Source: Tegillarca granosa
Taxonomy: Eukaryota
DNA length: 64,000 nt
Direction: 5' to 3'
Assembly (NCBI GenBank): GCA_029721355.1
Contig: CM056607.1
Location: 8,339,309 to 8,403,308, forward strand
The position numbers and the translations under genes are program-made. Within the stretch, counting starts at the first letter, position 1, and the number at the start of each line of letters is the position of its first letter. Below the pieces are notes generated by a model. The model worked only from the letters and a program-made list of their open reading frames with translations. It did not search any database and was not told the origin of the DNA. Positions 5,952 through 46,204 of this stretch are shown here, one piece after another.

Positions 5952-7422
5952 TATACTAGCGGAAAAAAGTAACTGTTCATCAATAAAATTTATAATTTCG
6001 CTATTATTACTGAATGTATAAATCTTAAAATTTGCACCAATGGTAAGTGTATATACCTCTATCATATCATCAATTGCCCGTGATTTTTACGCTTCATGTG
6101 CACGGGTCGGTTTTCACGCAATTGTCGCCCAGCATTTCAGTGTGACAATATTTTAGGAATAATTTACTGTTGTTTGTTTGTTTGGACACCAGAAAACCAG
6201 AAAAGCAAGTTTATTCGGTTGAAAGCTTCCATAGTCTAATGCCTAGGCTAAATGAAAATGATCGCCTCTGCACAATTGGTATGCTTGAGGCTGGTATGAC
6301 CCAAAGCTTTGTCACTAGACATTTTGGTGTCCACAGAAACACTGTTTATGCTTTATGGAGACGATACCAACAGTTTGGCACCACTAGAGACCGCCCTCGT
6401 TCAGGACGTCCACACGTAACGACACGTCAGCAAGACAACCATATCCGGCTTGTGCACCCCCGGAATCGTTTCCAAACTGCCAGTACTACTGCCTGGAGCA
6501 TTCCTGGACTACGCCCAATCAGCCCCAGAACAGTAAGGAATCATTTACGGGAAAGACATATTGGCCCACGACATCCGGCAATCCGTCCAATTCTACAACG
6601 ACGTGATCGCACAGCTCGCCTTGCATGGTGCAGAACACATTTACGCTTCAATCTACGAGATTGGACACAAATTATGTTCACCGATGAGTCTAGATTTCAC
6701 TTGGACAGCAGTGACGGACGCTCCAGAGTGTATCAGCCCATTGGAGAACGTTTTCATGACGCGTGTGTGGTGGAACGACGTTGGTTCGACGGGGGCAGTG
6801 TAATGGTTTGGGGTGGCATCACAGCGAATGACAGAACTCCTCTGGTAGTCATCGTCAGGAATTTTACCAGTGTACGGTACCCTGATGAAATCCTACATAC
6901 CCATGTCATCCGATTCATTCAAGGACAGCAACGTAATGTCACTTTTCAGCATGATAATGCAAGACCACTCGTCACACGAGTTGCAATGGATTTTCTGGCA
7001 CAGCATAACGTCAATGTGTTACCATGGCCAGCCGTTTCACCAGACTTTTCTCCAATTGAACACGTATGGGATGAAATGGAACGTCGATTACATCATCTGC
7101 CTAATCAGCCTGTTACATTGCAAGGGTTGGCCCAAGCGTTAGACCAGATATGGAACAACATCCCTCAAGCATTCTTTAGGCATTTAATCAACTCTATGAG
7201 GCATCTCTGTCTCATGATACTGATCTTGTGAACTGACTTTTACTATCTGCTATGTTTCTAGTCCCCTGGGTATGAAATAACAATATCTAACCTTTTCAAT
7301 GACATGAATTTGTAAAGAAATATCTAATAAACAAATACGAAATTATTCATTGCTTTGCATTTTCAAATTATTTTATAATCACACATTTCAGTCATGCACA
7401 GTTACTTTTTTCCGCTAGTATA
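5952..7422 (+). mobile_element. Tc1-family (DD34E) DNA transposon, apparently intact, in PARP4 intron 1 about 85 bp upstream of exon 2
   Basis: Perfect 25-bp terminal inverted repeats TATACTAGCGGAAAAAAGTAACTGT (5952-5976) and ACAGTTACTTTTTTCCGCTAGTATA (7398-7422). TA dinucleotides at both ends are consistent with a TA target-site duplication. A single uninterrupted transposase ORF lies inside. Confidence 0.85.
6239..7231 (+). CDS. Tc1-like transposase (paired-like HTH + DDE catalytic domain, DD34E)
   Basis: MPRLNENDRLCTIGMLEAGMTQSFVTRHFGVHRNTVYALWRRYQQFGTTRDRPRSGRPH.. Catalytic motifs FTDESRF, QHDNARPLV and SPDFSPIEHVWDEM with 34 residues between the second D and E. The ORF track begins 23 codons earlier at 6170 via a non-ATG start. 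Confidence 0.85.
   Translation: MPRLNENDRLCTIGMLEAGMTQSFVTRHFGVHRNTVYALWRRYQQFGTTRDRPRSGRPHVTTRQQDNHIRLVHPRNRFQTASTTAWSIPGLRPISPRTVRNHLRERHIGPRHPAIRPILQRRDRTARLAWCRTHLRFNLRDWTQIMFTDESRFHLDSSDGRSRVYQPIGERFHDACVVERRWFDGGSVMVWGGITANDRTPLVVIVRNFTSVRYPDEILHTHVIRFIQGQQRNVTFQHDNARPLVTRVAMDFLAQHNVNVLPWPAVSPDFSPIEHVWDEMERRLHHLPNQPVTLQGLAQALDQIWNNIPQAFFRHLINSMRHLCLMILIL

Positions 7423-9610: not shown

Positions 9611-9670
<60 letters not shown>
9611..9670. repeat. T60 homopolymer (PARP4 intron 4)
   Basis: Direct reading. Confidence 0.95.
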
Positions 9671-11460: not shown

Positions 11461-11630
11461 CAAGAATTCACACAGAAGCATAATAGTTATTTAGTAGTGG
11501 CTGTGTTGTAAAAACCTTTGATATCATACATTTTATGTTAGATTTACAAATTTTAAATACCCTATCCACTGAGTAGTGATCAGTAAGACATTTATTTTTC
11601 ATTAATTTTTGTTCTATATTAATGTTACAG

Positions 11631-11768
11631 TTACTTGGTGAATTGTGTATTTTGACAAGTGAAATAATGCCAGAGATTGGTAGACTTGTTGAGATTGTTT
11701 GGAGGGAAGCTACGTATGAAGCTGAATCAAATTTGTCAATATCGACACAACACATAAAACCATCACAA
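11631..11768 (+). CDS. PARP4: PARP4-like exon 6 (PARP regulatory/helical region)
   Basis: tgttacag|TTA.. ..TCACAA|gtaagt. LLGELCILTSEIMPEIGRLVEIVWREATYEAESNLSISTQHIKPSQ ~ human SQEVSDLVEMIWAEALGHLE. Confidence 0.7.
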
Positions 11769-12407
11769 GTAAGTTTTTATTTTTAATATTCTTAAAATTA
11801 ATCATTGAGAGTCAGTTTTTCACACCCCCACCCCTAATGGCCATTCCTAACATATTAGTTAAAAAAAACCAGTTATTTTGATATTGTGATGGATTGTTGT
11901 TAGTAACCATGACAATATAAATTGCAGAATGATGAATTATAACTTGATGTTTGCAATGTCAGTGTATGTTTTCTGACGTTTAATTTAAATAGTCATATGC
12001 AGGGACAAAATTAATTATTTTGAATGAGATTTTTTATACTCTATATTGGTAGATTTCTCTTTACTACATTTCCATTATTTTAATATTAATAATCTATTAT
12101 ATGGTTTTCCAAACATTTCCATATAACATATTTCTATATTTCCCATTGATTTCCATTAGAAAATTCCTAAGGAGATTCTCATGTTGATAAGAACATCCCA
12201 TTTTTAACTGTCAACCTTAAGATAAGTTAAAAATTATCATGGTACATATCAAGCTGCCATTTTCAAGTTTCTAAACCAATGATTTCAATAATGCTTCACA
12301 GTTACCGATAGAGAGATATATTGGTCCTTGGATTGTACATGTATTTATTTAATATTTCAGCATTCTTTTACCACACCCTAATTAAATATACAAAATTTTA
12401 TCTGCAG

Positions 12408-12575
12408 GTTGAAGATGCAGAAGTAGCTTTAATGCAGCTGAAGAATTCTGTGTGTTCTGGAAATGATAAAAATAAACAACAACAATATACAGAGGAGTTT
12501 TATCAAGCCATTCCACATAAAATTAAATCCAGTTTAAATCTTAGACAAATCACAGCAAAACAAGATCTGTGTCAG
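12408..12575 (+). CDS. PARP4: PARP4-like exon 7; its 3' end is the founder of the 59-bp minisatellite
   Basis: tctgcag|GTT.. ..TGTCAG|gtatgt. VEDAEVALMQLKNSVCSGNDKNKQQQYTEEFYQAIPHKIKSSLNLRQITAKQDLCQ ~ human TAEQLQKMMTEFYRLIPHKGTMPKEVNLGLLAKKADLCQ. Confidence 0.85.
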
Positions 12576-15500
12576 GTATGTGATGAAGATATACCTTAGA
12601 CAAATTACAGCAAAACAAGCTCTGTGTCAGGTATGTGATGAAGATAAATAACCTTAGACAAATCACAGCAAAACAAGATATGTGTCAGGTATGTGATGAA
12701 GATAAATAACCTTAGACAAATCACAACAAAACAAGATCTGTGTCAGGTATGTGATAAAGATAAATAACCTTAGACAAATCACAGCAAAACAAGATCTGTG
12801 TCAGGTATGTGATGAAGATAAATAACCTTAGACAAATCACAGCAAAACAAGATCTGTGTCAGGTATGTGATGAAGATAAATAACCTTAGACAAATCACAA
12901 CAAAACAAGATATGTGTCAGGTATGTGATGAAGATAAATAACCTTAGACAAATCACAACAAAACAAGATCTGTGTCAGGTATGTGATTAAGATAAATAAC
13001 CTTAGACAAATCACAGCAAAACAAGATCTGTGTCAGGTATGTGATGAAGATAAATAACCTTAGACAAATCACAGCAAAACAAGATCTGTGTCAGGTATGT
13101 GATGAAGATAAATAACCTTAGACAAATCACAACAAAACAAGATCTGTGTCAGGTATGTGATGAAGATAAATAACCTTAGACAAATCACAACAAAACAAGA
13201 TCTGTGTCAGGTATGTGATGAAGATAAATAACCTTAGACAAATCACAACAAAACAAGATCTGTGTCAGGTATGTGATGAAGATAAATAACCTTAGACAAA
13301 TCACAGCAAAACAAGATCTGTGTCAGGTATGTGATGAAGATAAATAACCTTAGACAAATCACAGCAAGACAAGATCTGTGTCAGGTATGTGATGAAGATA
13401 ATACCTTAGACAAATTACAGCAAGACAAGATCTGTGTCAGGTATGTGATGAAGATAAATAACCTTAGACAAATCACAGCAAAACAAGATCTGTGTCAGGT
13501 ATGTGATGAAGATAAATAACCTTAGACAAATCACAGCAAGACAAGATCTGTGTCAGGTATGTGATGAAGATAAATAACCTTAGACAAATCAGAGCAAAAC
13601 AAGATCTGTATCAGGTATGTGATGAAGATAAATAACCTTAGACAAATCACAGCAAGACAAGATCTGTGTCAGGTATGTGATTAAGATAAATAACCTTAGA
13701 CAAATCACAGCAAAACAAGATCTGTGTCAGGTAGTGTGATTAAGATAAATAACCTTAGACAAATCACAGCAAGACAAGATCTGTGTCAGGTATGTGATTA
13801 AGATAAATAACCTTAGACAAATCACAGCAAAACAAGATCTGTGTCAGGTATGTGATTAAGATAAATAACCTTAGACAAATCACAGCAAAACAAGATCTGT
13901 GTCAGGTATGTGATGAAGATAAATAACCTTAGACAAATCACAGCAAAACAAGATCTGTGTCAGGTAGTGTGATTAAGATAAATAACCTTAGACAAATCAC
14001 AGCAAACAAGATCTGTGTCAGGTTGTGATGAAGATAAATAACCTTAGACAAATCACAGCAAAACAAGATCTGTGTCAGGTATGTGATTAAGATAAATAAC
14101 CTTAGACAAATCACAGCAAAACAAGATCTGTGTCAGGTATGTGATTAAGATAAATAACCTTAGACAAATCACAGCAAAACAAGATCTGTGTCAGGTATGT
14201 GATGAAGATAAATAACCTTAGACAAATCACAGCAAAACAAGATCTGTGTCAGGTATGTGATTAAGATAAATAACCTTAGACAAATCACAGCAAAACAAGA
14301 TCTGTGTCAGGTATGTGATGAAGATAAATAACCTTAGACAAATCACAGCAAAACAAGATCTGTGTCAGGTATGTGATTAAGATAAATAACCTTAGACAAA
14401 TCACAGCAAGACAAGATCTGTGTCAGGTATGTGATTAAGATAAATAACCTTAGACAAATCACAGCAAAACAAGATCTGTGTCAGGTTTGTGATGAAGATA
14501 AATAACCTTAGACAAATCACAGCAAAACAAGATCTGTGTCAGGTATGTGATTAAGATAAATAACCTTAGACAAATCACAGCAAGACAAGATCTGTGTCAG
14601 GTATGTGATTAAGATAAATAACCTTAGACAAATCACAGCAAAACAAGATCTGTGTCAGGTATGTGATTAAGATAAATAACCTTAGACAAATCACAGCAAA
14701 ACAAGATCTGTGTCAGGTATGTGATTAAGATAAATAACCTTAGACAAATCACAGCAAAACAAGATCTGTGTCAGGTATGTGATTAAGATAAATAACCTTA
14801 GACAAATCACAGCAAAACAAGATCTGTGTCAGGTATGTGATTAAGATAAATAACCTTAGACAAATCACAGCAAAACAAGATCTGTGTCAGGTATGTGATT
14901 AAGATAAATAACCTTAGACAAATCACAGCAAAACAAGATCTGTGTCAGGTATGTGATGAAGATAAATAACCTTAGACAAATCACAGCAAAACAAGATCTG
15001 TGTCAGGTATGTGATTAAGATAAATAACCTTAGACAAATCACAGCAAAACAAGATCTGTGTCAGGTATGTGATTAAGATAAATAACCTTAGACAAATCAC
15101 AGCAAAACAAGATCTGTGTCAGGTATGTGATTAAGATAAATAACCTTAGACAAATCACAGCAAAACAAGATCTGTGTCAGGTATGTGATGAAGATAAATA
15201 ACCTTAGACAAATCACAACAAAACAAGATCTGTGTCAGGTATGTGATGAAGATAAATAACCGTAGACAAATCACAGCAAAACAAGATCTGTGTCAGGTAT
15301 GTGATTAAGATAAATAACCTTAGACAAATCACAGCAAAACAAGATCTGTGTCAGGTATGTGATGAAGATAATAACCTTAGACAAATCACAGCAAAACAAG
15401 ATCTGTGTCAGGTATGTGATGAAGATAAATAACCTTAGACAAATCACAGCAAAACAAGATCTGTGTCAGGTATGTGATTAAGATAAATAACCTTAGACAA

Positions 15501-16530
15501 ATCACAGCAAACAAGATCTGTGTCAGGTATGTGATTAAGATAAATAACCTTAGACAAATCACAGCAAAACAAGATCTGTGTCAGGTATGTGATGAAGATA
15601 AATAACCTTAGACAAATCACAGCAAAACAAGATCCGTGTCAGGTATGTGATTAAGATAAATAACCTTAGACAAATCACAGCAAAACAAGATCTGTGTCAG
15701 GTATGTGATTAAGATAAATAACCTTAGACAAATTACAGCAAGACAAGATCTGTGTCAGGTATGTGATTAAGATAAATAACCTTAGACAAATTACAGCAAG
15801 ACAAGATCCGTGTCAGGTGTGTGATTAAGATAAATAACCTTAGACAAATCAGAGCAAAACAAGATCTGTGTCAGGTATGTGATTAAGATAAATAACCTTA
15901 GACAAATCACAGCAAACAAGATCTGTGTCAGGTATGTGATTAAGATAAATAACCTTAGACAAATCAGAGCAAAACAAGATCTGTGTCAGGTGTGTGATTA
16001 AGATAAATAACCTTAGACAAATCACAGCAAAACAAGATCTGTGTCAGGTATGTGATTAAGATAAATAACCTTAGACAAATCACAGCAAAACAAGATCTGT
16101 GTCAGGTATGTGATTAAGATAAATAACCTTAGACAAATTACAGCAAGACAAGATCCGTGTCAGGTGTGTGATGAAGATAAATAACCTTAGACAAATCAGA
16201 GCAAAACAAGATCCGTGTCAGGTATGTGATGAAGATAAATAACCTTAGACAAATCACAGCAAAACAAGATCCGTGTCAGGTATGTGATTAAGATAAATAA
16301 CCTTAGACAAATCACAGCAAACAAGATCTGTGTCAGGTATGTGATGAAGATAAATAACCGTAGACAAATCACAGCAAAACAAGATCTGTGTCAGGTATGT
16401 GATGAAGATAAATAACCGTAGACAAATCACAGCAAAACAAGATCTGTGTCAGGTATGTGATTAAGATAAATAACCTTAGACAAATCACAACAAAACAAGA
16501 TCTGTGTCAGATATGTGATTAAGATAAATC
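12537..16530 (+). repeat. 59-bp minisatellite x ~67 (TTAGACAAATCACAGCAAAACAAGATCTGTGTCAGGTATGTGATGAAGATAAATAACC); the first unit is the last 39 nt of PARP4 exon 7 plus the first 20 nt of intron 7
   Basis: Direct reading. Near-identical units with point variants (gaag/taag, caaa/caag, ctt/cgt). Every unit retains TGTCAG|GTATGT. Confidence 0.95.
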
Positions 16531-17099
16531 TACAAGTCAGTGCTTAGTTAGTAGCATAACCATTTCTTTATATTGCTTTACAGTTTGAGTAGAAAAATCT
16601 CTGTTTGAAATGATTAAAAATAAAAATATTTATTGACCCCTTGAAAAAAAAATAGAAAAACAAAAGTCTGGATCAGATTGGATTACATTAACCTGTGTTT
16701 TACCAAAAGTCAAGATTCTTTAAGTTTTACTGAGGCAGTCAATTCTTGGATGGTAGAGTGTCCACTGACCTTCATCAAGTGAACTGACAAAGTTAAACGA
16801 TAGAGACAACTGAAAAGATATTTTGACATCAACTTTATCCTCAATGAACAAATGCTTGAATGTTACCAACATACTGTGCAAAAAAATTGATGTTAAAAAA
16901 TTTGGCAAATTAAAATCAGTGGGTGTATGAATACGAAAGTGAATTTAGAAGTGAAATTCTGGAAACACAATTTGTGCTTGAATGAGTAAGTGATTTCTGT
17001 ATCTTATTTGTCAATTGAAATCTTTTACATTACTTCTTCAGCACCATTGATCAAATAACACAACTTTAAGTCAGCATATATGGTCCTATAAAGAACCAA

Positions 17100-17292
17100 A
17101 TATTCAAATTTAACATGTACAGAAAAGGAGTGGAGTGGAGTAATGGTGTTTTATGCTTCAGTCAAGATTCTGACAAACTTCCTCACACTAGGATCTGTAC
17201 CAAGTGGGATTCAAACTTAGGTGATGAAAGGCACTATGATCTGTAAGCACACGCTTTAGACTATTCAGCTGTGGAGGCCCCCTGGATTGGAT
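17100..17292 (-). mobile_element. tRNA-derived SINE family A copy A2 (PARP4 intron 7, just upstream of exon 8)
   Basis: ggagtggagtaatggtgtttta..cagtcaagattctgacaaacttcctcacactaggatctg..gggattcaaacttaggtgatgaaaggcactatgatctgtaagcacacgctt.. Confidence 0.6.
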
Positions 17293-17371
17293 TAATATCT
17301 GAGTCTAATATTAATCTGAGAAAAACATTTACATGTACAACAAGTGAAAATTTTTATATTTTCTGTTCTAG

Positions 17372-17532
17372 TTGATACATGATATACATGGTGCAAGTGA
17401 AGCTACAGATTGGTCTGAAGATGCCACAACATATGCAAAGTTCAGGGCATTAAGATGTCATGTGACCTATCTTGACCAACCAGATCAAGGATATCATGAT
17501 GTCAAAAACATGGTTGAAAGCACTTCTCCAGG
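17372..17532 (+). CDS. PARP4: PARP4-like exon 8 (catalytic domain start)
   Basis: tgttctag|TTG.. ..CCAGG|gtatgt. LIHDIHGASEATDWSEDATTYAKFRALRCHVTYLDQPDQGYHDVKNMVESTSP ~ human LIRDMVNVCETNLSKPNPPSLAKYRALRCKIEHV. Confidence 0.85.
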
Positions 17533-18301
17533 GTATGTGTATGTTTTACTTAGTATTGCACTTAAGAAATTATTTAAAAGTTTTGAGTTTCATTAAGGAA
17601 TAATGTGTAAATGGTATGTTGCAGAAAATTTCTTAAAATGTCATAGTTATTTCCTATTGACTGATTAATAATATATTAAAGATTATTTGAAACATGAAAA
17701 TTGATAATTGCAATCAAAATGAGGTTTTTACAAAACAAAGAAAGAAAAATATGATGTACTACATGACATTATAAATAACCCATCACTACATATTTTTCTT
17801 TCATTGTCAGGTGATTTTTATGATAAAAGTTTAAGTTAAAGGTAAAACATTTGATTGACTATCTGTTGTCTTGTTTATAATTACATTTACGGTATATCTG
17901 TACAGATATACATGTACTACATTCATCTGATTTTTTAAGACACTAACAAATAACTTCATTTAATAATTTCACCAAACAGAAAATTATATTTTCATCCTTA
18001 CTTCAATTGTGAGACAAGTAAGTGAATTTACAGGTCATTCCTTCAATTATCAAGGGTCTCAGTGACTAATCTTACTATGGAATGCAATACCTATGATCAT
18101 GACCACCTTAGTTAAAATCTAGATCTTAATGCTAAAAAGATTGTCAGTGTTCTTGGTGAAACATCGGTGGTTTCCTCAGGGCACTGTAGTTTGCCACCAT
18201 CTTTGAACTGTGCATCTTGATGTAGTAAAAAAGAATAATGACTTGTGTCTGTGGCACCATTAATCGACTTCTGTAGTTATCAATCATATTATTTATTGTA
18301 G

Positions 18302-18433
18302 TGTAAAGATTTTGAATATATACAAAGTAGGAAGAACGGCAGAAGATATACAGTTTAACACAAATGGAACTAGAAATGTACATCTGCTCATGCACTCCTC
18401 TGCTGCTTATAACTTTCTAGGTATTCTCTCAAG
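18302..18433 (+). CDS. PARP4: PARP4-like exon 9 (catalytic His)
   Basis: ttattgtag|TGT.. ..TCAAG|gtatgt. VKILNIYKVGRTAEDIQFNTNGTRNVHLLMHSSAAYNFLGILS ~ human VDVLQIFRVGRVNETTEFLSKLGNVRPLLHGSPVQNIVGILCRG. Confidence 0.85.
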
Positions 18434-18999
18434 GTATGTATGGTATGTTAGTCACAAAATTAATTCTGCCACCCTCTCATTTAGAAATAATAAACCATTT
18501 GGCTAGTTCCGTTATTCAATTTGTATTTTACAATTACAACTGTCAACTTATGTACTTCCAACAAAAAAGAGTTTCACTTGATAAGTGTGTTTTTTTTTAC
18601 GTATTGAATGGCCTTTTATAAACTGTCAACTGAACAACCAGCTGTTCCCAAAGTTTGTCCAGTCTGCAACTTTTGTAAAAATAATGTGTCCAGTTTAACT
18701 TCTTAGGAAATGGATAATTTACAATTCTTTATTGAATGAATTCAAACATAAGTATACAGAGTTAGAACCCAAAAATTGCTTTTATCATTCAAAAACAAAA
18801 GAATTGCAATATGTCATTCATATATGACCATGTAATTACCCCAATGGCTGCATCACTTCATGAAATATTCGTTGACATGTGAAAGCCAGTTTGTGTTATT
18901 CGATGATAAAGCACAGGTAGATACTTATTTTTTTTTTTTATTGAAAACCTCAAATTCCAAATTCACTCAGTTCTAAATTACACATTTATTTTTTTTCAG

Positions 19000-19098
19000 A
19001 GGGTTATTACTACCAAATATAGCTGTAGACCAGTATGGAGTAAGTCAGACTGATGCTGGTATGTTAGGTGCTGGGATATATTTCTCTAATTCACTTAA
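19000..19098 (+). CDS. PARP4: PARP4-like exon 10 (catalytic Tyr, GIYFS)
   Basis: ttttttcag|AGG.. ..CTTAA|gtaagt. RGLLLPNIAVDQYGVSQTDAGMLGAGIYFSNSL ~ human RGLLLPKVVEDRGVQRTDVGNLGSGIYFSDSL. Confidence 0.85.
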
Positions 19099-19309
19099 GT
19101 AAGTATGATTTTTATCTCATCTGCAAAAAGGGCAAAAAAAGTTATTTCCTCTCATATCACACTTTTAAAAATTGATTTTGTCTGTGACAAGCCTTTGGGT
19201 TTACTGTATTTTCTGAACCAACAAAATAGCCATGATTTCATCCACACATGTGAAAGAGTCTTTTAGCCTTACACCTGGTATTTGTGATAGCATAAGTGTC
19301 CAATGCTAA

Positions 19310-19795
19310 AGAACAACCTCAATAAAATGATCCATCCATACAGTTAAGTTTTCTGATCCATCCATACAGGTAAGCTTTTTGATCCATACATACATATAAG
19401 CTTCTTGATGCATCCATTCAGGTAAGCTTTCTGATGCACCCATACAGGTAAGTTTTCTGATGCACCCATACAGGTAAGCTTTCTGATGCATCCATACAGA
19501 TAAGCTTTCTGATGCATCCTTACAGGTAAGTTTTCTGATGCACCCATTCAGGTAAGCTTTCTGATGCATCCATACAGTTAAGCTTTCTGATGCACCCATA
19601 CAGGTAAACTTTCTGATGCACCCATACAGGTAAGCTTTCTGGTGCATCTAAACAGGTAAGTTTTCTGATGCATCCATACAGGTAAACTTTCTGATGCACC
19701 CATACAGGTTAGCTTTCTGATGCATCTATACAGGTAAGTTTTCTGATGCATCCATACAGATAAGCTTTCTGATGCATCCATACAGGTAATTATCT
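19310..19795 (+). repeat. 26-bp minisatellite x ~18 (CATACAGGTAAGYTTTCTGATGCAYC), each unit containing the consensus 5' splice site CAGGTAAG; PARP4 intron 10
   Basis: Direct reading; period 26 measured between successive catacaggta. Confidence 0.9.
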
Positions 19796-20505
19796 AAACA
19801 TGCTAGACTGTTAAGACATTTCATTATTAATTGGCAATATCTCTTTAAATGTTTCCTGTTAACGAGCCCAGTGCAATTAGGAACTTCCAGAAGTAGAAAA
19901 TTCATGTGTCTGAAATGAATTCCACCTTTTCCAATCAAGTGACCCAGATAAACTCTTCAAATGGGAAGGGAAAAAAATGTAAAAAATGGCAACTTCCATT
20001 ATGGAATTTTAGCATTTTGATGAACATTTAAATAGTTTTTAAGAAGATTTTATACTCCAATTGGTGAAAATGAAAACCTGCTTATTTTATTGCTTTTAAA
20101 TAGGCAAGTATTTTATGTATAGTTAACAGTTGTATTCGCTGAGTCCTCCATATTTTAAGCATGTGACATGCATATCTTCTGAAATTATGCCCGATTTTTA
20201 AAAGAGTCAGAAATGCTTCTGGAAAAGGAAGTTGCCCAGTCAAAAATTCAGAAGGCATTTTACGTGAGTAACTCGTGTTTTCTACTTCTGGAAGTTCCCA
20301 ATCGCATCAGGGTCTAGTAATAAGGCATCACTTGTTACAGTGATGAATACCATTGACCATCAGTTTTAGACCAATATTAAAGATAATACACTGCTGTATT
20401 GTAAATTCATTGGCAAAAAAGTTTAATGATTGTTTGTAAAAATATTGCATAAAATATGGTGTCAAATTATTTCAGAATTTTAATGATTTTCTATTTTCAT
20501 TTCAG

Positions 20506-20683
20506 TATAAGTAATCTTTACTCAAAACCAAGTGTTCATACTGGTTCAAGATTTGTACTTCTCTGTGAGGTTGCTCTTGGAAAATCTTGTAAATTTTCAA
20601 AGCCTGATCCAAAATTGAAAGCACCACCTGTAGGTTATGACAGTGTTTGTAGAGTTTTAAGTGAAGAAAATCACAGTATTGAG
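20506..20683 (+). CDS. PARP4: PARP4-like exon 11
   Basis: catttcag|TAT.. ..ATTGAG|gtaaga. NISNLYSKPSVHTGSRFVLLCEVALGKSCKFSKPDPKLKAPPVGYDSVCRVLSEENHSIE ~ human YSHPGETDGTRLLLICDVALGKCMDLHEKDFSLTEAPPGYDSVHGV. Confidence 0.85.
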
Positions 20684-21312
20684 GTAAGAATGTTTTTATT
20701 GCATAACATGTCCCTTCTATTTGTGTCACTGTAATTTTGTCAATGAATTATTTAGAATTTTCATAGAAATTTCAATGAACTATAATTCAGCATCTTTTAC
20801 TCGCTTAAGTCTAGTCATAACTGAAAATCAGGTATCCGCAATTACCATAGAAGAATACACACAGTAAAAATATGTCTCTTTGGGGGTTTTACTTGTTAAA
20901 AAACAAGGCAAATGGTAAATTCTTTTGCACATTTAATGTAATGCAACACTAAAACATCACTTTCAGTGTAAAAACCACCATTTTCAACATATAGAATCCC
21001 CATAGCAGCAATGTTTTACTTTCTACAGAAATAATTTATGACATTTGCAGATGCCCATAGCGATTTCCAGTTACGACCAATTAATTGTAGCAAGACCATA
21101 TAATAAAAAACATAATACACAGATGAAGTATCGCTGTCATTTCCATGGTAACTGTGTAGTTTTAAATGAAGAAAATAGCAATATTGAGGCACGAATTTTT
21201 CGTTATGCATATCCTGTCCCTAAATCCATATAGCAAAATCCTAAACATATTTGTGAACAAATGTTTTGACTAATGACTCTTTAATTATCATCAGCTGTAT
21301 ATTTTATTTTAG

Positions 21313-21466
21313 GAATTGGAGTATGTCATTTATAATCCCAGTCAACATAGAATGAAATATTTAGTAGAATATGCACTCCCAACAGATGAAATCTCACAGA
21401 TTGAAAACTTCACTGTTACCATGGAAACTGATGAAGAAGTTTTACAGAAAAATTTATCAAAAATTG
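21313..21466 (+). CDS. PARP4: PARP4-like exon 12 (catalytic Glu region)
   Basis: attttag|GAA.. ..AAATTG|gtatgt. ELEYVIYNPSQHRMKYLVEYALPTDEISQIENFTVTMETDEEVLQKNLSKI ~ human DEFVVYKTNQVKMKYIIKFSMPGDQ. Confidence 0.8.
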
Positions 21467-22150
21467 GTATGTTATTGCAAATTCAGCAACTTTAATCCCA
21501 ATAGCTTAATTATATGACATTCAATAGTTAGTTTATACAGTTTTAAGTATACTAATGTATAAGGAAATACAGTGCAGCCTGTTCAACTGAACACATGTAG
21601 ACCAAAGATTTGGTTTGGTTTAGGAAGGAATATGGTTTACACAGGTTATTTTAACAAATGATTTTAAAAATCAATGAAAATTGATCAGGTAATACCTTTT
21701 TTTGGTTAAGTTGACCAGTTGCACTATAGGCTGATAAATAATGGTTTAAATAAACACTTTATAAGAACATGATTTCAGGTTGTTTTATTGTTATAGATAC
21801 ATGCTTATTGTTAAAATTCATACAAAATTAAAGTTTGTCAACATATGATAAATTCTTGGTTTGGATACTTTTCAAGTACCAGTACATTGTATTTCAATAT
21901 TTTCTAGTTTGATGAGGGTTTTTCTTAATCTAAACCCAGGTGAAACAATTAACTAACAGAATAATTTTTTTTGTGTCATCTGAATAAAATGAGGCAAATT
22001 TATCAAAAATTGCTAGGTAAAAATTGAATAACCAGGTAAAAATTGCTAACCAGGTAACTTATGTCAAAGATTATGGTAATCTTGAGCTTGTGCATTGATA
22101 AATTGTATGTTAAAACTTAAAATTTTACAGGAATATTATTTTTGCTTTAG

Positions 22151-22281
22151 ATATAAATGATGTTAAAGACATTCCTGATCCATTAGCTAAAGTGGAGGCA
22201 GGTTTAATTGGAGGAAAGAAAAATTCTGTACCTCTGAAAAGTGTTCATATCAGAGCTAAATTACTGGATCTTGTAGGACAG
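22151..22281 (+). CDS. PARP4: PARP4-like exon 13
   Basis: tttgctttag|AT.. ..GGACAG|gtaaat. DINDVKDIPDPLAKVEAGLIGGKKNSVPLKSVHIRAKLLDLVGQ ~ human NLVPLEDVHIKGRIIDTVAQ. Confidence 0.75.
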
Positions 22282-22360
22282 GTAAATATATGGAATTTTA
22301 ATTCAGTATCTTACTGGATCTTGTAGGACAGGTAAATATATGGAAGTCTAATTCAGTATC
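22261..22360 (+). repeat. 50-bp tandem duplication of the exon-13 3' end + donor (TTACTGGATCTTGTAGGACAG|GTAAATATATGGAA.T.TAATTCAGTATC x2)
   Basis: Direct reading; the second copy carries an intact GACAG|GTAAAT. Confidence 0.9.
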
Positions 22361-22700
22361 TCCTACAGACATGTGAGATCATTATTCAACAAATAGAACT
22401 AAAGGAAAATATATGGTGTTTTGTGCCCCATTCGAGATCATTTTTCTCACTTATATCAAGGTGGTGTAGGACAACAGAGTACTTGGTTAAAAACCACTGA
22501 CACTCCATAAGTAAACTGACAAACTTTAGAGGTAATCGGGCAAAACTCTTTGAAAAAATATGATAATATGTATTTGAAATATCTGTTATCAAATATAAAT
22601 GTTATAAAAAGATAGAATTTACAAAGTTTAATTTTTTCACTTTTATCATCATCATCATCATCATCAAGTGTCACTCTATCAAATCAAAATTTTATTTTAG

Positions 22701-22827
22701 GTAGTAGTTTTACAGTCTTACAGAAATGACAATAGTGTAAACATAGAAGCTAAGTATGTATTCCCCCTGGATGATACGGCAGCTGTTTGTGGATTTGAAG
22801 CTTTTATAAATGGAAAACACATTATTG
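22701..22827 (+). CDS. PARP4: PARP4-like exon 14 (VIT domain)
   Basis: tttattttag|GTA.. ..ATTATTG|gtcagt. VVVLQSYRNDNSVNIEAKYVFPLDDTAAVCGFEAFINGKHII ~ human VIVFQTYTNKSHVPIEAKYIFPLDDKAAVCGFEAFINGKHIVG. Confidence 0.9.
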
Positions 22828-23248
22828 GTCAGTATTTAAGAATTGTGCTATAAAGTTGTGTTTTTATTTCTTCTACAATCTTTGTTCTCAAAAGCTCACT
22901 TATGATTTCAAAAACTTTCTTTTTCTAATTGTTCTAGATAAGAGTTTGACACCCTGACAAAAGTTGATGTCTTCCTCCTGGTAAAAATATAGATACATGT
23001 ATAGTGTCTACTTGGTGAAACTTGTGTATTTAGTTCTGAATGATATCATGTGATAACTGATAAACAAATGTCACCTTTGGTCTTTAAGCTTTACATTTGG
23101 TGAACCTCCCTTTTTAGATTGAATAATCTGTATAGACATAGAATATGTAAAACACAAATCTTGTTCATTGTTGTATTTTGATATTAGACTGAAAGAGGAA
23201 TTTAACTTCAATAACCATTTAAGTTAACAGTATACATATTTTTTACAG

Positions 23249-23340
23249 GGGAGGTTAAAGAGAAAGCCAAAGCTCATAAGGAGTACAAAGAGGCTGTTAG
23301 TAAAGGTCATGGTGCTTATCTGATGGATGAAGAAGAACCA
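23249..23340 (+). CDS. PARP4: PARP4-like exon 15 (VIT)
   Basis: ttttacag|GG.. ..GAACCA|gtaagt. GEVKEKAKAHKEYKEAVSKGHGAYLMDEEEP ~ human GEIKEKEEAQQEYLEAVTQGHGAYLMSQDAP. Confidence 0.85.
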
Positions 23341-23845
23341 GTAAGTAACATGTGTGTACACATACAATATAGTGCACTTACTCATACATGCATATGTATA
23401 CATATAAAATAATGAAAAATGAGACAAAAACAGAAATACTGTCAATCAGATTTTGTACATTTTGACAGAGTAAATGGTGAACATTTAAAAAATCTCAAAA
23501 GAGAGGGAAAGAGAGAAAAATGTAGCCAAAAGGTCCCATGAAAAATTAAAAATTCTTCTTTTGCTTGGCCTACTGGACCCCCAGTAGGGCTCAGTGCCTT
23601 TAGTGGCCCAACGACCATTTACCACTTTGTGCTTGTGCTTTTGAGGCTTGCAATATTTCATTAAAAAATCTCACCCCCCCCCTCATAAAAATAATGGTTT
23701 CGCCCCATTGTAGTGCTTAAAATGCATGCTGGTTTACATTGATAAAATACAGATCAAGATCAAGTTTGAATTTTAGTTTTTTATATGAACCAATTTTAAA
23801 AATTTGTCATTATCAGTGATGCCTCTTATTTTGATTGAATTTTAG

Positions 23846-24010
23846 GATGTTTTTACAGTGAGTGTTGGAAATCTTCCACCAAAGGCAGATGTACTTATCA
23901 AGATTACCTATATAACTGAACTACAGGTAGAGGGCGAAAATATCAGTTTTACAGTGCCATCTAGTGTTGCACCTTGGGTTAAAGATATGGCCTTAGCACA
24001 ACAAACTCAG
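23846..24010 (+). CDS. PARP4: PARP4-like exon 16 (VIT)
   Basis: aattttag|GAT.. ..ACTCAG|gtatgt. DVFTVSVGNLPPKADVLIKITYITELQVEGENISFTVPSSVAPWVKDMALAQQTQ ~ human DVFTVSVGNLPPKAKVLIKITYITELSILG..ATVAPW. Confidence 0.9.
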
Positions 24011-24580
24011 GTATGTTGTGTTCATTTGTTTTTGTTGTTGTAGTGTTTATTTTTATAATTAAATTTAAGGGTCAAGTCCATGCAGGGCCTTAAGCTCATC
24101 TGGTCTGTACTGCTTATCTTTTTATATTTATTGCATGAATTCATTGAGAGAAAAATGCTGTCTTTTTACTGGGGTGACACTCAGTCAAAAGGACTCAAAA
24201 TAACCAACATCAATTCTGCTTATACATTCATTTATCAGCAGGGACAAGTGAAGTTTATGTCTTTATGGACATTTTTCAATTTGGCATAGAGAGTAACATG
24301 ATAATGTAACAGATGTCATGGCTGATTTTCGTATTTGTAACACAAAACAGTTCATTTTGTTGATAAGAGCTGATAATTCAAAATGGAGGTTACTAGAGAT
24401 AGCAATAAGATTAAACAAAAGTCTTTTTATTTTCTATTTGTATGAGATATGTGTTGTACACTTTGTTTCCCAACTTTTGATTACTGCTAATGGCATCATT
24501 GCCAAAAAATATCTTTTTCATACTAAATAAATTTCTTATCGCTACATGCATATATTTTATAATTTTTGTCCTTTTTTAAG

Positions 24581-24703
24581 GATAATTTACAAACTTTGAA
24601 AATACATAACAGTAGCAGATGTGAAGTGTCGTTACATGTTTCTGTGGAAATGCCGTTTGATATTAGACGTTTATACTCACCTACACATGTCATCAAATAT
24701 AAG
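24581..24703 (+). CDS. PARP4: PARP4-like exon 17
   Basis: ctttttttaag|GAT.. ..TATAAG|gtaact. DNLQTLKIHNSSRCEVSLHVSVEMPFDIRRLYSPTHVIKYK ~ human KQSFSLTMSIEMPYVIEFIFSDTHELKQK. Confidence 0.75.
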
Positions 24704-25743
24704 GTAACTATGAGATGATGATAAACATTAATATATCTGAAATCATAAAATTCCAAGGTGTCCCAAGTCGAATTTACGTTAGGTCATTACATGTATTTAT
24801 CCATTTTGTACACACTGTTGTCAATGAATTCTCGTGTACATGTACATGTACCAATATTTCTTAAAGTCTATAGGTCCATGAATCTATTGTTTATCTCGGC
24901 CTCATTGACACAAAGTCCTAAAAGTAATTACTAGAACTTCTGTCAAAGTTTAGAGTTGTACCCACCATTACAATTAAAATTTTGACTGAAGAAGCCTCAA
25001 CATCATGGAATCATTTAAACATTTCTTTAATAATCATTTGTCACATATAGAATTAAGTGATTAGGGATATTAAAGGAAGTTGTATCTTCACCAAAAGTTT
25101 AAATCTCAGCATTCCTACCATTCCTTCCTTCGACTGGGTGTTCTGGGACAATCAATCTGGCTTAACCAACTATCTATTAATCCTGCAGTGGTTACTTCTT
25201 AGCAAAAGAAACGGTATTGTGTAGTTGTTTATTTTTGTGGAGTGCAAATTTTGGCATATTTTGGCAAAAGTATTAAAATCGCAAAATTCAAATTGTAAAA
25301 ATATTTTTATACCAGTCGATCAGTAGTAAGTCATTTTAGATCAGGAGAATAAATACGCTAAAATTGTCAATCAATCTTTTCTTGTCAAAATTGCCAAAAA
25401 TTTAGCCCTGCTATTTTTTAGCCTTATTTTTTGTATGCTAGTTTTCTAATTAGACTTAAATTTACCCATATAAAAATGACAGTTTTCATCAATTAGAATA
25501 AACAACTTTAAATAAACTTATATATAATGCATGCACTATAAAGCCAAATACTGTGTTTGAAATTTTTAAGGGTTTGAAGTACTTAACTGTTCTGCCTAAA
25601 GAAACTTTCATGATATACTGTTTTGCTACAAAAAACATTAAAAATAAACCTTTTTTGGCATATACATATGGTTTATTTTTTTTGTGGTAAATATGCTGAT
25701 TTTGTTTTACGATAAAGTTGTAATAATTATCTATCTATTCCAG

Positions 25744-25878
25744 AAAACTGCAACCAAAGCTGTACTACAATTACCAAAGAATGCACAACTAGATGAAGGT
25801 TTTCAGCTACTGATTATGTTGTCAGAAATACATGTACCCAGAATGTGGGTAGAAAGACATCCAGACAAAGATAGTCAG
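25744..25878 (+). CDS. PARP4: PARP4-like exon 18
   Basis: ctattccag|AAA.. ..AGTCAG|gtatca. KTATKAVLQLPKNAQLDEGFQLLIMLSEIHVPRMWVERHPDKDSQ ~ human ..SAAYLPRMWVEKHPEKESE. Confidence 0.8.
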
Positions 25879-26100
25879 GTATCACATCTGTTTGTGTCGG
25901 GGAGGGGACAAAAAGTTTTGGGTGTTAGGGGAATAAAATGGTAGAAAGACACCCAGACAAAGCTAGTCAGGTATGGCATCTGTTTATGTGTTGGGGGATG
26001 AAAAGTTATGGGTGTTAGAGGAATTAAATGGCAAAAGGACATCCAGACAAAGATTGTCACATATTACATCTGTTTGTTTGTTTGGGGGGGGAGGGTTGAA
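25850..26100 (+). repeat. ~85-bp unit x 3 comprising the exon-18 3' end + donor (GTAGAAAGACAYCCAGACAAAGMTAGTCAGGTATSRCATCTGTTT..GGGG..GTTAGGGGAATAAAATGG)
   Basis: Copy 1 is the real exon end (25850-25935). Copy 2 (25940-26025) retains GTCAG|GTATGG. Copy 3 (26028-26105) has GTCACATATT, so its donor is lost. Confidence 0.8.
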
Positions 26101-26329
26101 AGGTTGTGGGTGTTAGGGGAATTAAATGGTACAAAGAGGAGGGGGGTAGGACATGGCAGAAACAGGGATGGTGGTGTAGCTTCATTGGAATGAATATGGG
26201 TAGAGGCCACTTAGGTAGATAGCTATGACATTTGTTTGTGTGTGCGTGTGTGTGTGTGTGTGGGGGGGGGGGGTTTACATAAGAATTACAATTCATACAA
26301 ATTCAGACAAATAGTAAGAATTAATCCCC

Positions 26330-26910
26330 CATGGACATTTATGATTTTCTAGTATTTCATAGTTGTATTTTTTCCAGTATTTCATAGTTGTATTTTCCCT
26401 GTATTTCATAGTTGTATTTTCCCTGTATTTCATAGTTGTATTTTTCCCAGTATTTCATAGTTGTATTTTCCCTGTATTTCATAGTTGTATTTTCCCTGTA
26501 TTTCATAGTTGTATTTTTTTCCAGTTTTCCAGTAATTCATAGTTGTATTTTTCCCAGTATTTCATAGTTGTATTTTTTCCAGTATTTCATAGTTGTATTT
26601 TCCCTGTATTTCATAGTTGTATTTTCCCTGTATTTCATATTTGTTATTTCCCAGTATTTCATAGTTGTATTTTCCCTGTATTTCATAGTTGTATTTTCCC
26701 TGTATTTCATAGTTGTATTTTTTTCCAGTTTTCCAGTATTTCATAGTTGTATTTTTCCCAGTATTTCATAGTTGTATTTTCCCTGTATTTCATAGTTGTA
26801 TTTTTCCCTGTATTTTATAGTTGTATTTTTTTCCAGTATTTCATAGTTGTATTTTCCCTGTATTTCATAGTTGTATTTTTTACAGTATTTCGTAGTTGTA
26901 TTTTTAGGAC
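26330..26910 (+). repeat. 24-27-bp minisatellite x ~22 (GTATTTCATAGTTGTATTTTCCCT) in PARP4 intron 18, ending 25 bp before the exon-19 acceptor
   Basis: Direct reading; ORFs 26543-26959 (both strands) are artefacts of it. Confidence 0.9.
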
Positions 26911-26933
26911 ATTATTATTTAACTATTTTACAG

Positions 26934-27053
26934 GCCTGTATGGTGTCTTTTTATCCTGAGTTTGAAGCAGATACAGATGAAGAAGCAGAAGTTATATTTC
27001 TATTAGATATGTCTAATTCTATGTCAGGCCAGGCTGTTTTAGATGCCAAAAAG
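26934..27053 (+). CDS. PARP4: PARP4-like exon 19 (VWA domain start, D-x-S-x-S MIDAS)
   Basis: attttacag|GCC.. ..AAAAAG|gtaaaa. ACMVSFYPEFEADTDEEAEVIFLLDMSNSMSGQAVLDAKK ~ human ACMLVFQPDLD..EVIICLDCSSSMEGVTFLQAKQ. Confidence 0.85.
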
Positions 27054-27647
27054 GTAAAATATATTACCTCACATGAAGTAATTATTATACAGTGTAACCC
27101 CTTTTTCGGTTTGAGTGATTAAGTCACTGTGTATTATTGTTTAAAGCTGCCTCAGCATTATTTCTGCTATTCAAGGCTATCTGGTTTGAAGTCTCCTTTA
27201 TTCACCCGTTTTCATTTGATGATTTATATCAGTCTAGTAGTTCTGTAGATATATGAATTATTTCAGAGTTTTATTTATGTTATCATTATCCAGATGTATG
27301 TCAATGATAGTTTTGAATTTTCTATGCTAGATATCATAATATTACTTTAAGCCTTATCCAAGGTACAAGATGTAGATCCTGTTTTGCTGTACATGTATCT
27401 CAAAAATATAATTTTTGGGTTATTTACGACTTGAACCAGGCTTTAGTTCAGATTTCAAGTGAGATTTTTGTTAATTATTAACATATCAGTGTGACTGAAC
27501 CACAAATTCAAAATGTTGTGAACCAATTCTTACAAAAAGTGCCACAAAAATAACAAATAGATAGGCCTATTGTAAGAATTCATCTTCTAGATTTTTAATT
27601 TCATTATTATTATTATTACTTTTATTATTATTGTTATTATTATATAG

Positions 27648-29336: not shown

Positions 29337-30510
29337 TAGACCAAAAGGTCATATGAGCTTATGGCATGGCGTGGCATGTGTATGTGCATGCATGTGTGCA
29401 TTGTTAACACCTATTTTCAACTTCTCCTCCAAAACTGCTGGACAGATTTCAATGATACTTAGTCAGAAGCATATATGGGCCGGTGCAATTCAGATTTGTT
29501 CAAAACTAGGTCAAGGTGACCTAGGGGCCAAAAATCTTAAAAAAAAACTTCTTCTCCCAAACCGATGATGGGAGAAAAAATTTGATGTGATATTTGGCTT
29601 CTCTAGGGTCTTAAGCCTATAGTTTGTTTATTTCTTGAAATTAGGTCGAAAATCGGGTTACGGTACACGTTTTTGCATTTAATTTTAAAAATGGCTTCAA
29701 ATTGTTATAACTTGACTATTTGAACAGATAATGACATGAGGTTTTCAGTTTTGACTTTTTCTTGAAATGACCTTTAAATTAGGGCCAAGGTCACAAATCA
29801 AGGTCATGACCTAATTTATGATTTATGCAGTTTTAGGCAATTTTATTGCAAATATTAAGAGATATATGATTTCAAAACATTGTTAAAATGTTCAGCATGA
29901 CAAAATTTAAAAAGGTACAAAGTTTCATAACTATATGATAATCCATGTAGGAGTTGTTGCCCCTGAAATGTTACTTTTGGCTTATAAATACTAAAATTGT
30001 GCATTAGCTTGAAAACTTTAATTTTTTTTGTATAGGCATGTATATTAGAATATTGTAGGTATTGTAACAACGATCATTTTGATATATAGTTCAAGGTCTT
30101 ATGGTCAAAGGTCAAGATAACAGCTGCAAAAAAAGACTTAAATTGCTAATTATCTTGAATACTGTTAACTTTTTGTACAAGCATGTATATTAGAATATTG
30201 TAAGTATTGACATGAAGATCTTATATAGTTCAAGATCATATGTGTTCAAAGGTCAGGGACATAGCTGCATAAGTATACTGAAATTTGTTAATGATTTGGA
30301 AATTATTCATTGCACTACAGTTACTTCATGCATATTATATAAGATACGTATAAATGAAATGTGACTGGATATATTTCTGATTAAGTTTTGTGGGAGTTCT
30401 TAACTTGAGAAAACTTGTAAAGTTTCTGTACTTAATATATTGTCTATTGCATTTTGCAAACAATTTTTTACATATCCTCAGGTGAGCGTTAAGGCTCATG
30501 AGCCTCTTGT
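29337..30510 (+). mobile_element. Helentron-like non-autonomous element copy T1 (5'-variant), carrying internal ~140-150-bp satellite monomers; PARP4 intron 21
   Basis: Shares the body (..ggtcatatgagcttatggcatggcg.., GT-rich tract, ..ttctcctccaaaactg..cagatttcaatgatactt..) and the 3' end CCTCAGGTGAGCGTTAAGGCTCATGAGCCTCTTGT with T2-T5. Confidence 0.5.
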
Positions 30511-39709: not shown

Positions 39710-40275
39710 GTAAGTTAAATTTTTAGCTTCCATGAACCATATGTTATCTATAGATACAGAATATACTGTTACATGAAGTTTTGTTAGGAGATTTTGGATA
39801 TTTGTTTATCATAGTCAGTAAACCAGTATAGTCTTTAAGGAAATTTAAACATTTCAAATGTCTTTAGAATTCATAGAAGGCTCTAAAATTTTCAACTCAA
39901 AATTAAATTAAACATGTCAGTACTTAAGCTTGCATGAAAAAAAGCCTGCCGTTGTAGACTGAAGTAATTATGGTAATGCCTCAGTCATAATTTTCTCAAT
40001 TATATTGAGGCTCTCAGGTCTGATAGAGGAAGAGGAAACCAGAGTTCCTAGAGAAAATCACTTACCTTCAGCAATTAAGCTGGCAAAGTTTCTTACAAGA
40101 GGACATGTGATTGTGTGATTTTCACCTAGGAATTGGATTTCTTGTGATCTGTAAGCTAAATCCTCTTGGCCACCATGGACTCTTAAAGTATTAGAGGAAC
40201 AACAAAATAATGCAATCTATTTGATTTGAATTGTTATTTATTATAATTTATTATGTAAATCTCTTTTTATTACAG

Positions 40276-40452
40276 AACCAATAACACTGTGTGTAAAAAC
40301 ACTGTCTGGTAAAACTCTAGGTGTTGGTGCAATGAGGAACCAGACAATCCGAGATCTAAAGGACCTGATATTTGACAGGGAAGGGATACCCCCAGAAACC
40401 CAGAGACTTGTCATGGGGGGAAAACAAAGAACAGATGATGAATTAATCCAAG
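40276..40452 (+). CDS. PARP4: PARP4-like exon 30: N-terminal half of a ubiquitin-like domain
   Basis: tattacag|AA.. ..TCCAAG|gtacta. EPITLCVKTLSGKTLGVGAMRNQTIRDLKDLIFDREGIPPETQRLVMGGKQRTDDELIQ ~ ubiquitin [32 protein letters not shown]. Confidence 0.75.
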
Positions 40453-43500: not shown

Positions 43501-43975
43501 AAGCCATACCTGTTTTAGCCATCCCCTAATCACTATAAGATACACATATTATATGAAATACAGTTACACCTGCCCTACATTAAACCTGTCTAAAAGCCAT
43601 ACCTGTTTTAGCTGTCCCCTAATCACTAAAAGATACACATATTATATGAAATACAGTTACACCTGCTCTACAGTAAAACCTGTCTAAAAGCCATACCTGT
43701 TTTAGCTGTCCCCTAATCACTAAAAGATACACATATTATATGAAATACAGTTACACCTGCTCTACAGTAAAACCTGTCTAAAAGCCATACCTGTTTTAGC
43801 TGTCCCCTAATCACTAAAAGATACACATATTATATGAAATACAGTTACACCTGCTCTACAGTAAAACCTGTCTAAAAGCCATACCTGTTTTAGCTGTCCC
43901 CTAATCACTATAAGATACACATATTATATGAAATACAGTTACACCTGCCCTGTAAAACCTGTCATACAGTTGAAA
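40600..43975 (+). repeat. 93/94-bp satellite x ~36 in PARP4 intron 30 (CCATACCTGTTTTAGCYRTCCCCTAATCACTAWAAGATACACATATTATATGAAATACAGTTACACCTGCYCTACAKTAAAACCTGTCTAAAAG)
   Basis: Direct reading. Two unit subtypes (acagtaaaacc / acattaaacc) alternate. ORF 43367..43687 is a translation of it. Confidence 0.95.
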
Positions 43976-44393: not shown

Positions 44394-44689
44394 TATTTAT
44401 AGTTTATATCACCTGTAACTATGGTAGCTCACCTGGAGACATCTCTGACAACAGTGAAAAAAGTACCATATACATGTATATGTAGGTGAGCTACACATTG
44501 TTATGACAGGTCTTATTTAGATGACTGTTATATATATAAGATAGCATTAAATGGAAAAGTTTTAAAATACTGTCGAAATCCAATATTTATATATGAATCT
44601 TATACTTGGCTGTATCTTTTATTTACCACCCTTTTTTGAAGTAACAAAAATATTTTATTGCCTCAGTTGAAGTAAAGTGAAGTAAAGCC

Positions 44690-46133: not shown

Positions 46134-46138
<5 letters not shown>

Positions 46139-46204
<66 letters not shown>
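46139..46204. repeat. (CT)33 microsatellite, 30 bp upstream of HSP70-fragment exon B
   Basis: Direct reading. Confidence 0.95.

Follow-up and report, generated by a model that had tools for sequence, protein, structure and literature searches.

The 64,000-nt stretch of the Tegillarca granosa genome analysed here (assembly GCA_029721355.1, contig CM056607.1, positions 8,339,309 to 8,403,308 of the forward strand; GC content 32%; hereafter the window) contains, within an orthologue of PARP4, a minisatellite of 69 tandem units that is built from one exon/intron boundary of the gene and repeats the 5' splice site of that boundary along most of the intron. The array is a new and unusually large case of the boundary-spanning minisatellites known as 'mirages' in amphioxus and from intron 7 of human F7 (F7-IVS7); it is most likely neutral or nearly so and spliced out from the first donor. 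Coordinates below are positions in the window, and a slash within a splice site marks the exon/intron junction. The array and its surroundings comprise the following features:

12408..12575, + strand: PARP4 coding exon, 168 nt, phase 0 ('exon 7' in the earlier note on this DNA; by our count the sixth or seventh)
12573..12581, + strand: authentic 5' splice site CAG/GTATGT, with the exon end at 12575 and a phase-0 junction with the exon at 17372
12576..17371, + strand: intron of 4796 nt, with its donor at 12575 and its acceptor, ttctgttctag/TTG, at 17372, both phase 0
12540..16532, + strand: minisatellite, 69 units of 58 bp (Tandem Repeats Finder, unit table, motif counts, centre/edge pattern)
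16475..16532, + strand: last, degenerate unit, the 3' end of which diverges into unique intron sequence
12597..12599, + strand: first in-frame stop, TAG, closing the open frame 12312-12596, which ends ..DLCQVCDEDIP
17372..17532, + strand: next coding exon (LIHDIHGASEATDWS...STSPG), placed by tblastn with P0006 and P0032, by splice sites and by alignment

Tandem Repeats Finder (TRF) called the array at 12540-16529 with a period of 58, 68.9 copies, 97% matches and a score of 7346, and splitting the array on the unit start gave 69 units. The tandem array described in the earlier note is thereby upheld, although its details change: the copy number of about 67 was slightly off, the period is 58 rather than 59 bp, and the unit consists of 36 nt of PARP4 exon end and 22 nt of intron start instead of 39 and 20 nt. 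The unit reads CTTAGACAAATCACAGCAAAACAAGATCTGTGTCAG and then GTATGTGAT(T/G)AAGATAAATAAC. Unit 1 is the authentic junction itself, formed by the exon end at 12540-12575 (CTTAGACAAATCACAGCAAAACAAGATCTGTGTCAG, encoding LRQITAKQDLCQ) and the start of the intron. When searched for with up to three mismatches, the 36-nt exon part yielded 65 matches, all of them within the array, as compared to 0 in shuffled sequence; the 4 remaining units have 1-nt deletions in the exon-derived part. These counts, together with the identity of unit 1, confirm the proposed origin of the array from an exon/intron junction. In total, the array occupies 3957 nt (82%) of the 4796-nt intron.

The 36-mer was not found in the other 60 kb of the window, and a dispersed transposable element or satellite family was rejected on this ground. 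Nor was a 25-mer of the unit found in metagenome contigs, while a search of the literature for the satellite sequence returned unrelated primer matches only and an Rfam search of 11500-27500 returned no family match. Identical repeats at regular spacing also give the array a likeness to a clustered regularly interspaced short palindromic repeats (CRISPR) array. The earlier note had called this resemblance superficial, and rightly so: the units abut without spacers, they lie in an intron of a spliced eukaryotic gene, and there are no cas genes, so that a CRISPR array was rejected as well.

The assignment of the host gene to PARP4 stands. Pfam searches with the exon translations gave, in the order of the + strand, BRCT, PARP_reg, PARP, VIT and vWA, and the best database matches are to PARP4: a query comprising the catalytic and VIT regions retrieved PARP4 from vertebrates, molluscs and rotifers, with identities of 42-50% overall and 47-50% for the best matches. 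About 20 exons were mapped by tblastn with those PARP4 proteins, the splice sites being placed by frame and consensus. The exon 12408-12575, flanked by the acceptor ttatctgcag/GTT and the donor CAG/gtatgt, encodes VEDAEVALMQ...EEFYQAIPHKIKSSLNLRQITAKQDLCQ (frame-0 translation), within the PARP regulatory domain; the PARP_reg match, which extends over this exon and the next, has E=1e-4 and 22.9 bits, under the Pfam cut-off of 26.8 bits, and a protein search with the exon alone returned no matches. The protein sequence across the junction, ..AKQDLCQ/LIHDI.., matches a motif conserved among distant PARP4 proteins, (D/E)LCQ(L/M)..D. This end of the exon is thus ancestral coding sequence, and the copying went from exon to repeat. 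As a comparison for the intron we also tried L001 (the locus of P0012), which was rejected because it belongs to an intron-poor distant eukaryote.

The units fall into 30 types, with 18 units identical to the consensus, and their variation is strongly patterned along the array. Units 27-45, in the centre, are nearly uniform, and the mean number of differences from the consensus is 3.7 in the first three units and 2.7 in the last three, as compared to 1.3 in the rest. At unit position 46 the authentic intron has a G; 17 of the first 19 units have this G, as compared to 15 of the 50 others. Furthermore, 3 nt present in all other units are absent from the intron part of unit 1; as unit 1 alone is without them, the units that expanded were internal ones. 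Slippage or unequal exchange, with the edges escaping homogenisation, usually leaves a pattern of this kind.

The same variation bears on the possibility that the array, or its length, is a mis-assembly of a shorter repeat. Long arrays of 97% identity are prone to collapse or expansion, and the 1-nt deletions seen in the A-runs of six units (15, 26, 49, 52, 59 and 66) resemble the homopolymer errors of long reads. However, neighbouring units have structured combinations of variants in common (T12 with G20 in units 16, 56, 57 and 63; C29 in units 54, 57 and 63-65; a G-type block in units 1-19) that are not expected from random error or naive expansion, both flanks join cleanly to unique sequence, and four other junction copies are found in the same gene (see below). 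We therefore regard an artefact of assembly as highly improbable.

The exact sequence CAGGTATGT is found in 61 units, i.e. in the authentic junction and in 60 decoys. CAGGT is found in 68 units, and the 67 decoys thus divide into 60 exact and 7 altered ones (GTGTGT three times, GTAGTG twice, GTTGTG and GTTTGT); in the last unit the donor is inactivated, with a dead GATATGT (CAGATATGT at 16508-16516). The claim that every unit carries a donor identical to the authentic one is accurate for the 60 decoys and has to be withdrawn for the 8 of 69 units with altered donors. CAG/GTATGT also serves as the donor at 24010 and 27788, and it is the top-scoring type under a weight matrix made from the 16 other donors of the gene. 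Because no donor in the gene scores higher, the decoys are as good as real sites.

Use of a decoy would lead to a stop. Read-through from the authentic exon meets a TAG at codon 8, unit 1 being 3 nt shorter, whereas the in-frame stop comes at codon 7 (TAA) in G-type units and at codon 4 (GAT TAA) in T-type units; the TAA at the seventh codon that had been spelled out for read-through into any unit is correct for the G-type, but not for the T-type, with its codon 4, or for the authentic exon, with its TAG. The broader prediction, that any decoy use creates a premature stop, is borne out: since read-through meets the TAG at 12597-12599, the stop would have many exon junctions far downstream of it. 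With decoys 2 and 3, the exon would grow from 168 nt to 223 and 281 nt, respectively.

Such properties invite the view that the array is functional, with its ~67 strong 5' splice sites binding the U1 small nuclear ribonucleoprotein (snRNP) and tuning PARP4 output. The effect could be exerted in cis, through unproductive splicing and nonsense-mediated decay (NMD), slowed intron removal or chromatin retention, each depending on copy number, or in trans through titration of U1. Along with the 60 identical decoys of the top-scoring type and the premature stop that follows from every decoy use, this view can draw on the wide association of human tandem-repeat length with splicing variation (PMC10078293) and on the fact that the first pseudo-sites of two human minisatellites, those of IFI6 and CBS, do get used (PMC1557585). 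The variation among units speaks against it. The donor 9-mer holds 8 of the 101 variant cells, as compared to 15.5% expected by its length, and its share of variable columns equals that of the remaining unit; the donor motif is thus no more conserved than the rest, 8 of the 69 donors are altered, and there is no sign of extra constraint or selection on the decoy donors. A uniform centre with divergent edges is, moreover, what a minisatellite that evolves neutrally shows. U1 ranks with the most plentiful nuclear RNAs, its copies numbering around a million in a mammalian cell; a single intron cannot deplete such a supply, which makes titration in trans implausible. Finally, the pseudo-sites of F7, the tested precedent, do not compete (PMC1557585). 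The U1 sponge or NMD-based rheostat envisaged in the earlier note hence finds no support in the sequence, and we consider a tuning function very unlikely.

The arrangement had also been described as highly unusual, a description that the literature does not bear out: boundary-spanning minisatellites that repeat a donor have already been described in human and amphioxus genes (PMC1557585, PMC3087553, PMC3902484). The PARP4 array displays the three structural hallmarks of this class – a tandem unit of 10-200 bp, a first unit with the authentic boundary, and a splice site repeated in the intron – and the homogenisation that spares edge units is mirrored in its centre/edge divergence pattern, as seen in one assembly. 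In the variable-number tandem repeat of human F7 intron 7 (37 bp, 5-9 copies; Borensztajn et al. 2006, PMC1557585), as in PARP4, the first monomer spans the boundary and the authentic donor is followed by sequence-identical pseudo-sites, most of which would give a premature stop. The F7 pseudo-sites are functional but silent, the most upstream site being selected (PMC1557585). The two arrays differ in that F7 has 4 nt of exon per unit, 5-9 units and a weak donor (UGG/gugggu), whereas the PARP4 array has 36 nt, 69 units and a near-consensus donor, and in that the silence of the pseudo-sites is an experimental result in F7 but an expectation in PARP4.

Four more vertebrate genes carry boundary-spanning minisatellites that repeat the donor, all with copy numbers below 69. 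In IFI6 (6-16) intron 2 the first two of 25 pseudo-sites are used, and in CBS IVS13, with 15-20 repeats, two pseudo-sites are used; in LMNB2 (10-15 units of 100 bp) and PDGF intron 4 (16-18 units of 81 bp) splicing takes place at the authentic site only (PMC1557585). It is the constitutive use of the first two pseudo-sites that separates IFI6 and CBS from what we expect for PARP4. The mirages of amphioxus, described in Adh3, the globins BflGb6/9, TnC and PGBD5, leave regular splicing undisturbed, are unstable in length and exclude the cluster boundaries from homogenisation (PMC3087553, PMC3902484). Like the copies in the PARP4 gene, they are minisatellite-like boundary duplications found at several loci, with a homogenised centre and divergent boundary units; unlike these, they occur at 5' as well as 3' boundaries, mostly with low copy numbers (3-6 in BflGb6), whereas in the PARP4 gene only donors are affected and one array reaches 69 units. 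Introns born from tandem arrays or by AGGT duplication (Zhuo et al. 2007 PNAS; the Rogers model; both as cited in PMC3488318 and PMC3087553) likewise involve splice-signal units inside a gene. As far as the citing accounts go, however, the outcome there is a new intron or alternative splicing, while the PARP4 array lies inside a pre-existing, ancient intron position and gives no sign of a new intron.

We propose that a 58-bp segment across the PARP4 exon/intron boundary was duplicated in tandem and that replication slippage or unequal exchange, acting mainly on internal units, would then have brought the array to 69 units. Lying as a whole downstream of the authentic donor, it would leave with the intron. 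We infer by analogy that it is the authentic donor that is used: the spliceosome would take it because it is transcribed before all the others and because, across an exon of normal size (168 nt), the upstream 3' splice site is its partner, and the identical pseudo-sites further downstream would be silent or rarely used. Rare use of a decoy (+55 nt, +113 nt, and so on) would meet the TAG at 12597, and the product would be cleared by NMD. By the same analogy, the array would be neutral or slightly costly to the gene, and its length probably varies between individuals. As the gene contains four more copies of this kind, donor-junction copies appear to be tolerated in it.

Several considerations weigh against this account. 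The expectation that the first donor is used is drawn from vertebrates and amphioxus, the copy number of the array comes from one assembly, and the decoys match the best real donors of the gene in strength. Furthermore, exon definition by itself would let exons of 223 and 281 nt through, and some unproductive splicing is therefore likely. Finally, copying of donor junctions in this gene is about 10 times as frequent as uniform placement of repeats would give, a hint that chance may not fully account for how the copies arose or why they were kept.

The array might also leave the transcript by a more elaborate route, i.e. by stepwise or recursive removal, either unit by unit or by re-splicing after decoy use in a way that restores the exon end. 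The 58-nt unit runs from GT to CAG, and in CAG/GTATGT a 3' and a 5' splice site formally stand back to back; the unit, GTATGTGAT...TCTGTGTCAG, contains the branch-like AATAAC and TTAGAC; and excision of a whole number of units regenerates ..CAG/GTATGT. The sequence upstream of the CAG, however, is A-rich, and its short TCTGTGT stretch makes for a weak pyrimidine tract, while 58 nt is far under the intron sizes of this gene (about 400 nt or more). Known recursive splice sites lie in very long introns, as compared to 4.8 kb here. CAG/GTATGT thus has neither the strong pyrimidine tract nor the very long intron of a recursive splice site, and the probability that we assign to this route is close to nil.

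When five units were folded, the result was modestly better than for shuffles (z = -2.6), with a diffuse ensemble, and the sole notable pairing joined AATCACA, from the exon part, to TGTGATT, which occupies positions +4 to +10 of the donor. At the authentic junction, AATCACA (12548-12554) is complementary to TGTGAT(T) (12579-12585), and the same is true of every array unit, the pairing extending over 7 bp in units of the T-type and over 6 bp in those of the G-type and at the authentic junction. Folded into a small hairpin, AATCACA and TGTGAT(T) could partly mask the decoy donors.

The junction that seeded the array is not the only one in the gene to have been copied. Counting the main array, copies lying in the junction's own intron exist for 5 of the ~20 donor junctions, as compared to 0 of the 19 acceptor junctions of the same gene. 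The four extra copies, two of which are tandem and two of which lie ~500 nt from their source, are:

21153..21221, + strand: diverged copy (81%, E 1e-12; families D1 and I1) of the junction at exon end 20683
21996..22057, + strand: copy of the exon end at 21466 (AAATTTATCAAAAATTG; source 21450-21472; E 2.5e-6; families D2 and D4)
22261..22360, + strand: donor-junction duplication, 50 bp x2 (TRF and sequence; 96% identity, E 7e-20)
25853..26088, + strand: donor-junction duplication, ~90 bp x2.6 (TRF and sequence; blastn 91% and 90%)

In the duplication at 22261-22360, both copies combine 21 nt of exon end (..LLDLVGQ) with 29 nt of intron and both have CAG/GTAAAT. The copies at 25853-26088 join an exon end (..HPDKDSQ) to the start of its intron; CAG/GTATGG is kept in copy 2 and the GT is lost in copy 3. 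Of the two dispersed copies, that at 21996-22018 sits 546 nt downstream of the exon end at 21466 and is followed by a 19-bp x2.3 mini-array, the units of which repeat AAAAATTG..GGTA. The other, at 21153-21221, is ~65 nt long and consists of 31 nt of exon and 32 nt of intron (source 20653-20715); it lies 505 nt downstream of its source in the same intron, and its GT has decayed to GC.

The copy at 21153-21221 is accompanied by an inverted repeat of 28 nt (21140-21167 versus 21400-21427, 89% complementary). The arm at 21140-21167 is intronic and abuts the junction copy, and the arm at 21400-21427 lies inside the next coding exon. The pair could represent a compound templated insertion or, alternatively, an intron-exon RNA pairing; the fusion of the copy to an inverted fragment of the next exon points to template-switching repair.

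Two further minisatellites of the window contain donor-like sequences without being copies of one of its junctions. That at 19328-19789 (+ strand, 26 bp x17.8) has the consensus 5' splice site CAGGTAAG in 9 of ~18 units, and that at 40609-43963 (- strand, 94 bp x35.7) has CAGGTATG in 35 of ~36 units. CAGGTA[AT]G occurs only 2 times in the 48 kb of non-repeat, non-donor sequence (P=5e-5). Neither array includes an exon boundary of this window, and both were rejected as junction-derived. A T-rich minisatellite of 24/49 bp at 26351-26905 (~22 and ~11 copies) has units that resemble 3' splice sites (..TTGTATTTTTTCCAG, ..TATTTCATAG); it stops 29 nt short of the acceptor at 26934, leaving out the exon, and it too was rejected as junction-derived.

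Taken at face value, these observations would suit an origin of the array by a donor-linked mutational process rather than by random slippage, with the 5' splice-site sequence or its co-transcriptional recognition promoting local duplication or templated insertion; such an origin is compatible with the neutral present-day effect that we favour. Not only do the copies affect 5 of ~20 donor junctions and 0 of 19 acceptors, but a donor junction also forms the start of 3 of the 10 arrays within the gene span, as compared to 0.29 expected (P=0.002, or about 0.03 once the array that drew attention to the gene is discounted). The two additional arrays with CAGGTA[AT]G in most or all units, and the one copy that is compound with an inverted exon fragment, as from template switching, point the same way. 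On the other hand, the tests are post hoc and concern a single locus, and the mirages of amphioxus are found at both kinds of boundary (PMC3087553). Selection alone explains the asymmetry between donors and acceptors, because copies downstream of the first donor are harmless and copies upstream of an acceptor are not. There is also a detection bias, in that exon-derived copies are recognisable for longer since their source does not drift. We therefore consider a donor-linked origin unlikely, if worth keeping in view. That donor-junction copying is non-random here – either because splice sites seed duplications and insertions or because decoys are selected as a copy-number-tunable brake on PARP4 – we put forward as a somewhat more doubtful proposition still. 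Neither selection nor longer recognisability, however, explains the size of the donor-copy excess.

The remainder of the window contains several features unrelated to the donor junctions. In the first PARP4 intron, on the same strand, there is an intact open reading frame (ORF) of 330 aa for a Tc1/mariner-type transposase (6239-7231, +; DDE_3, HTH_Tnp_Tc3_2), the best database relatives of which are ~72-73% identical, the named matches being from oysters at 55-64%. A perfect run of 60 T is found at 9611-9670, also in a PARP4 intron. Downstream of PARP4 we located a ubiquitin-family exon (40230-40450 and ~44004-44399, +; Pfam E 2e-10), the intron of which contains the 94-bp array, a pair of HSP70-like ORFs (45291-46598, +; Pfam E 2e-42), and an open frame of 810 aa (52790-55219, +) that has internal coding repeats of 21 and 45 bp and weakly matches the Rpb1 C-terminal repeat. 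Finally, a satellite of ~145 bp (..GGTTCAAGGTCATATGTTGAAAGGTCAAGGTCACAGC..) forms short arrays at 36292-37822, 47234-48333, 49298-50328 and 63546-64000, and also at ~30194-30361; it occurs in both orientations, often beside the same flanking sequence, and looks associated with miniature inverted-repeat transposable elements (MITEs) or Helitrons.

For PARP4 biology itself the array is probably of little consequence. Its interest lies in being, with 69 units, an extreme natural case of a layout already known: ~67 copies of a strong, near-consensus donor come after the original, all in the same local context and each with 36 nt of real exon before it. RNA from this animal would put to a stringent test, one set up by nature, the rule that the first 5' splice site is always the winner, as the scanning or first-come behaviour of F7 implies, and the array would also gauge the cost of unproductive splicing. 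The array is nonetheless modest in itself, and it is the recurrent copying of donor junctions that most deserves attention at this locus. Five donor-junction copies in one gene suggest that mirage formation may be widespread outside cephalochordates, which bears on models of intron gain and on the origin of minisatellites. If donor copying is indeed non-random, then the five donors as compared to no acceptors, along with the two orphan arrays, would mark a genome-wide phenomenon, with mirages in another animal lineage.

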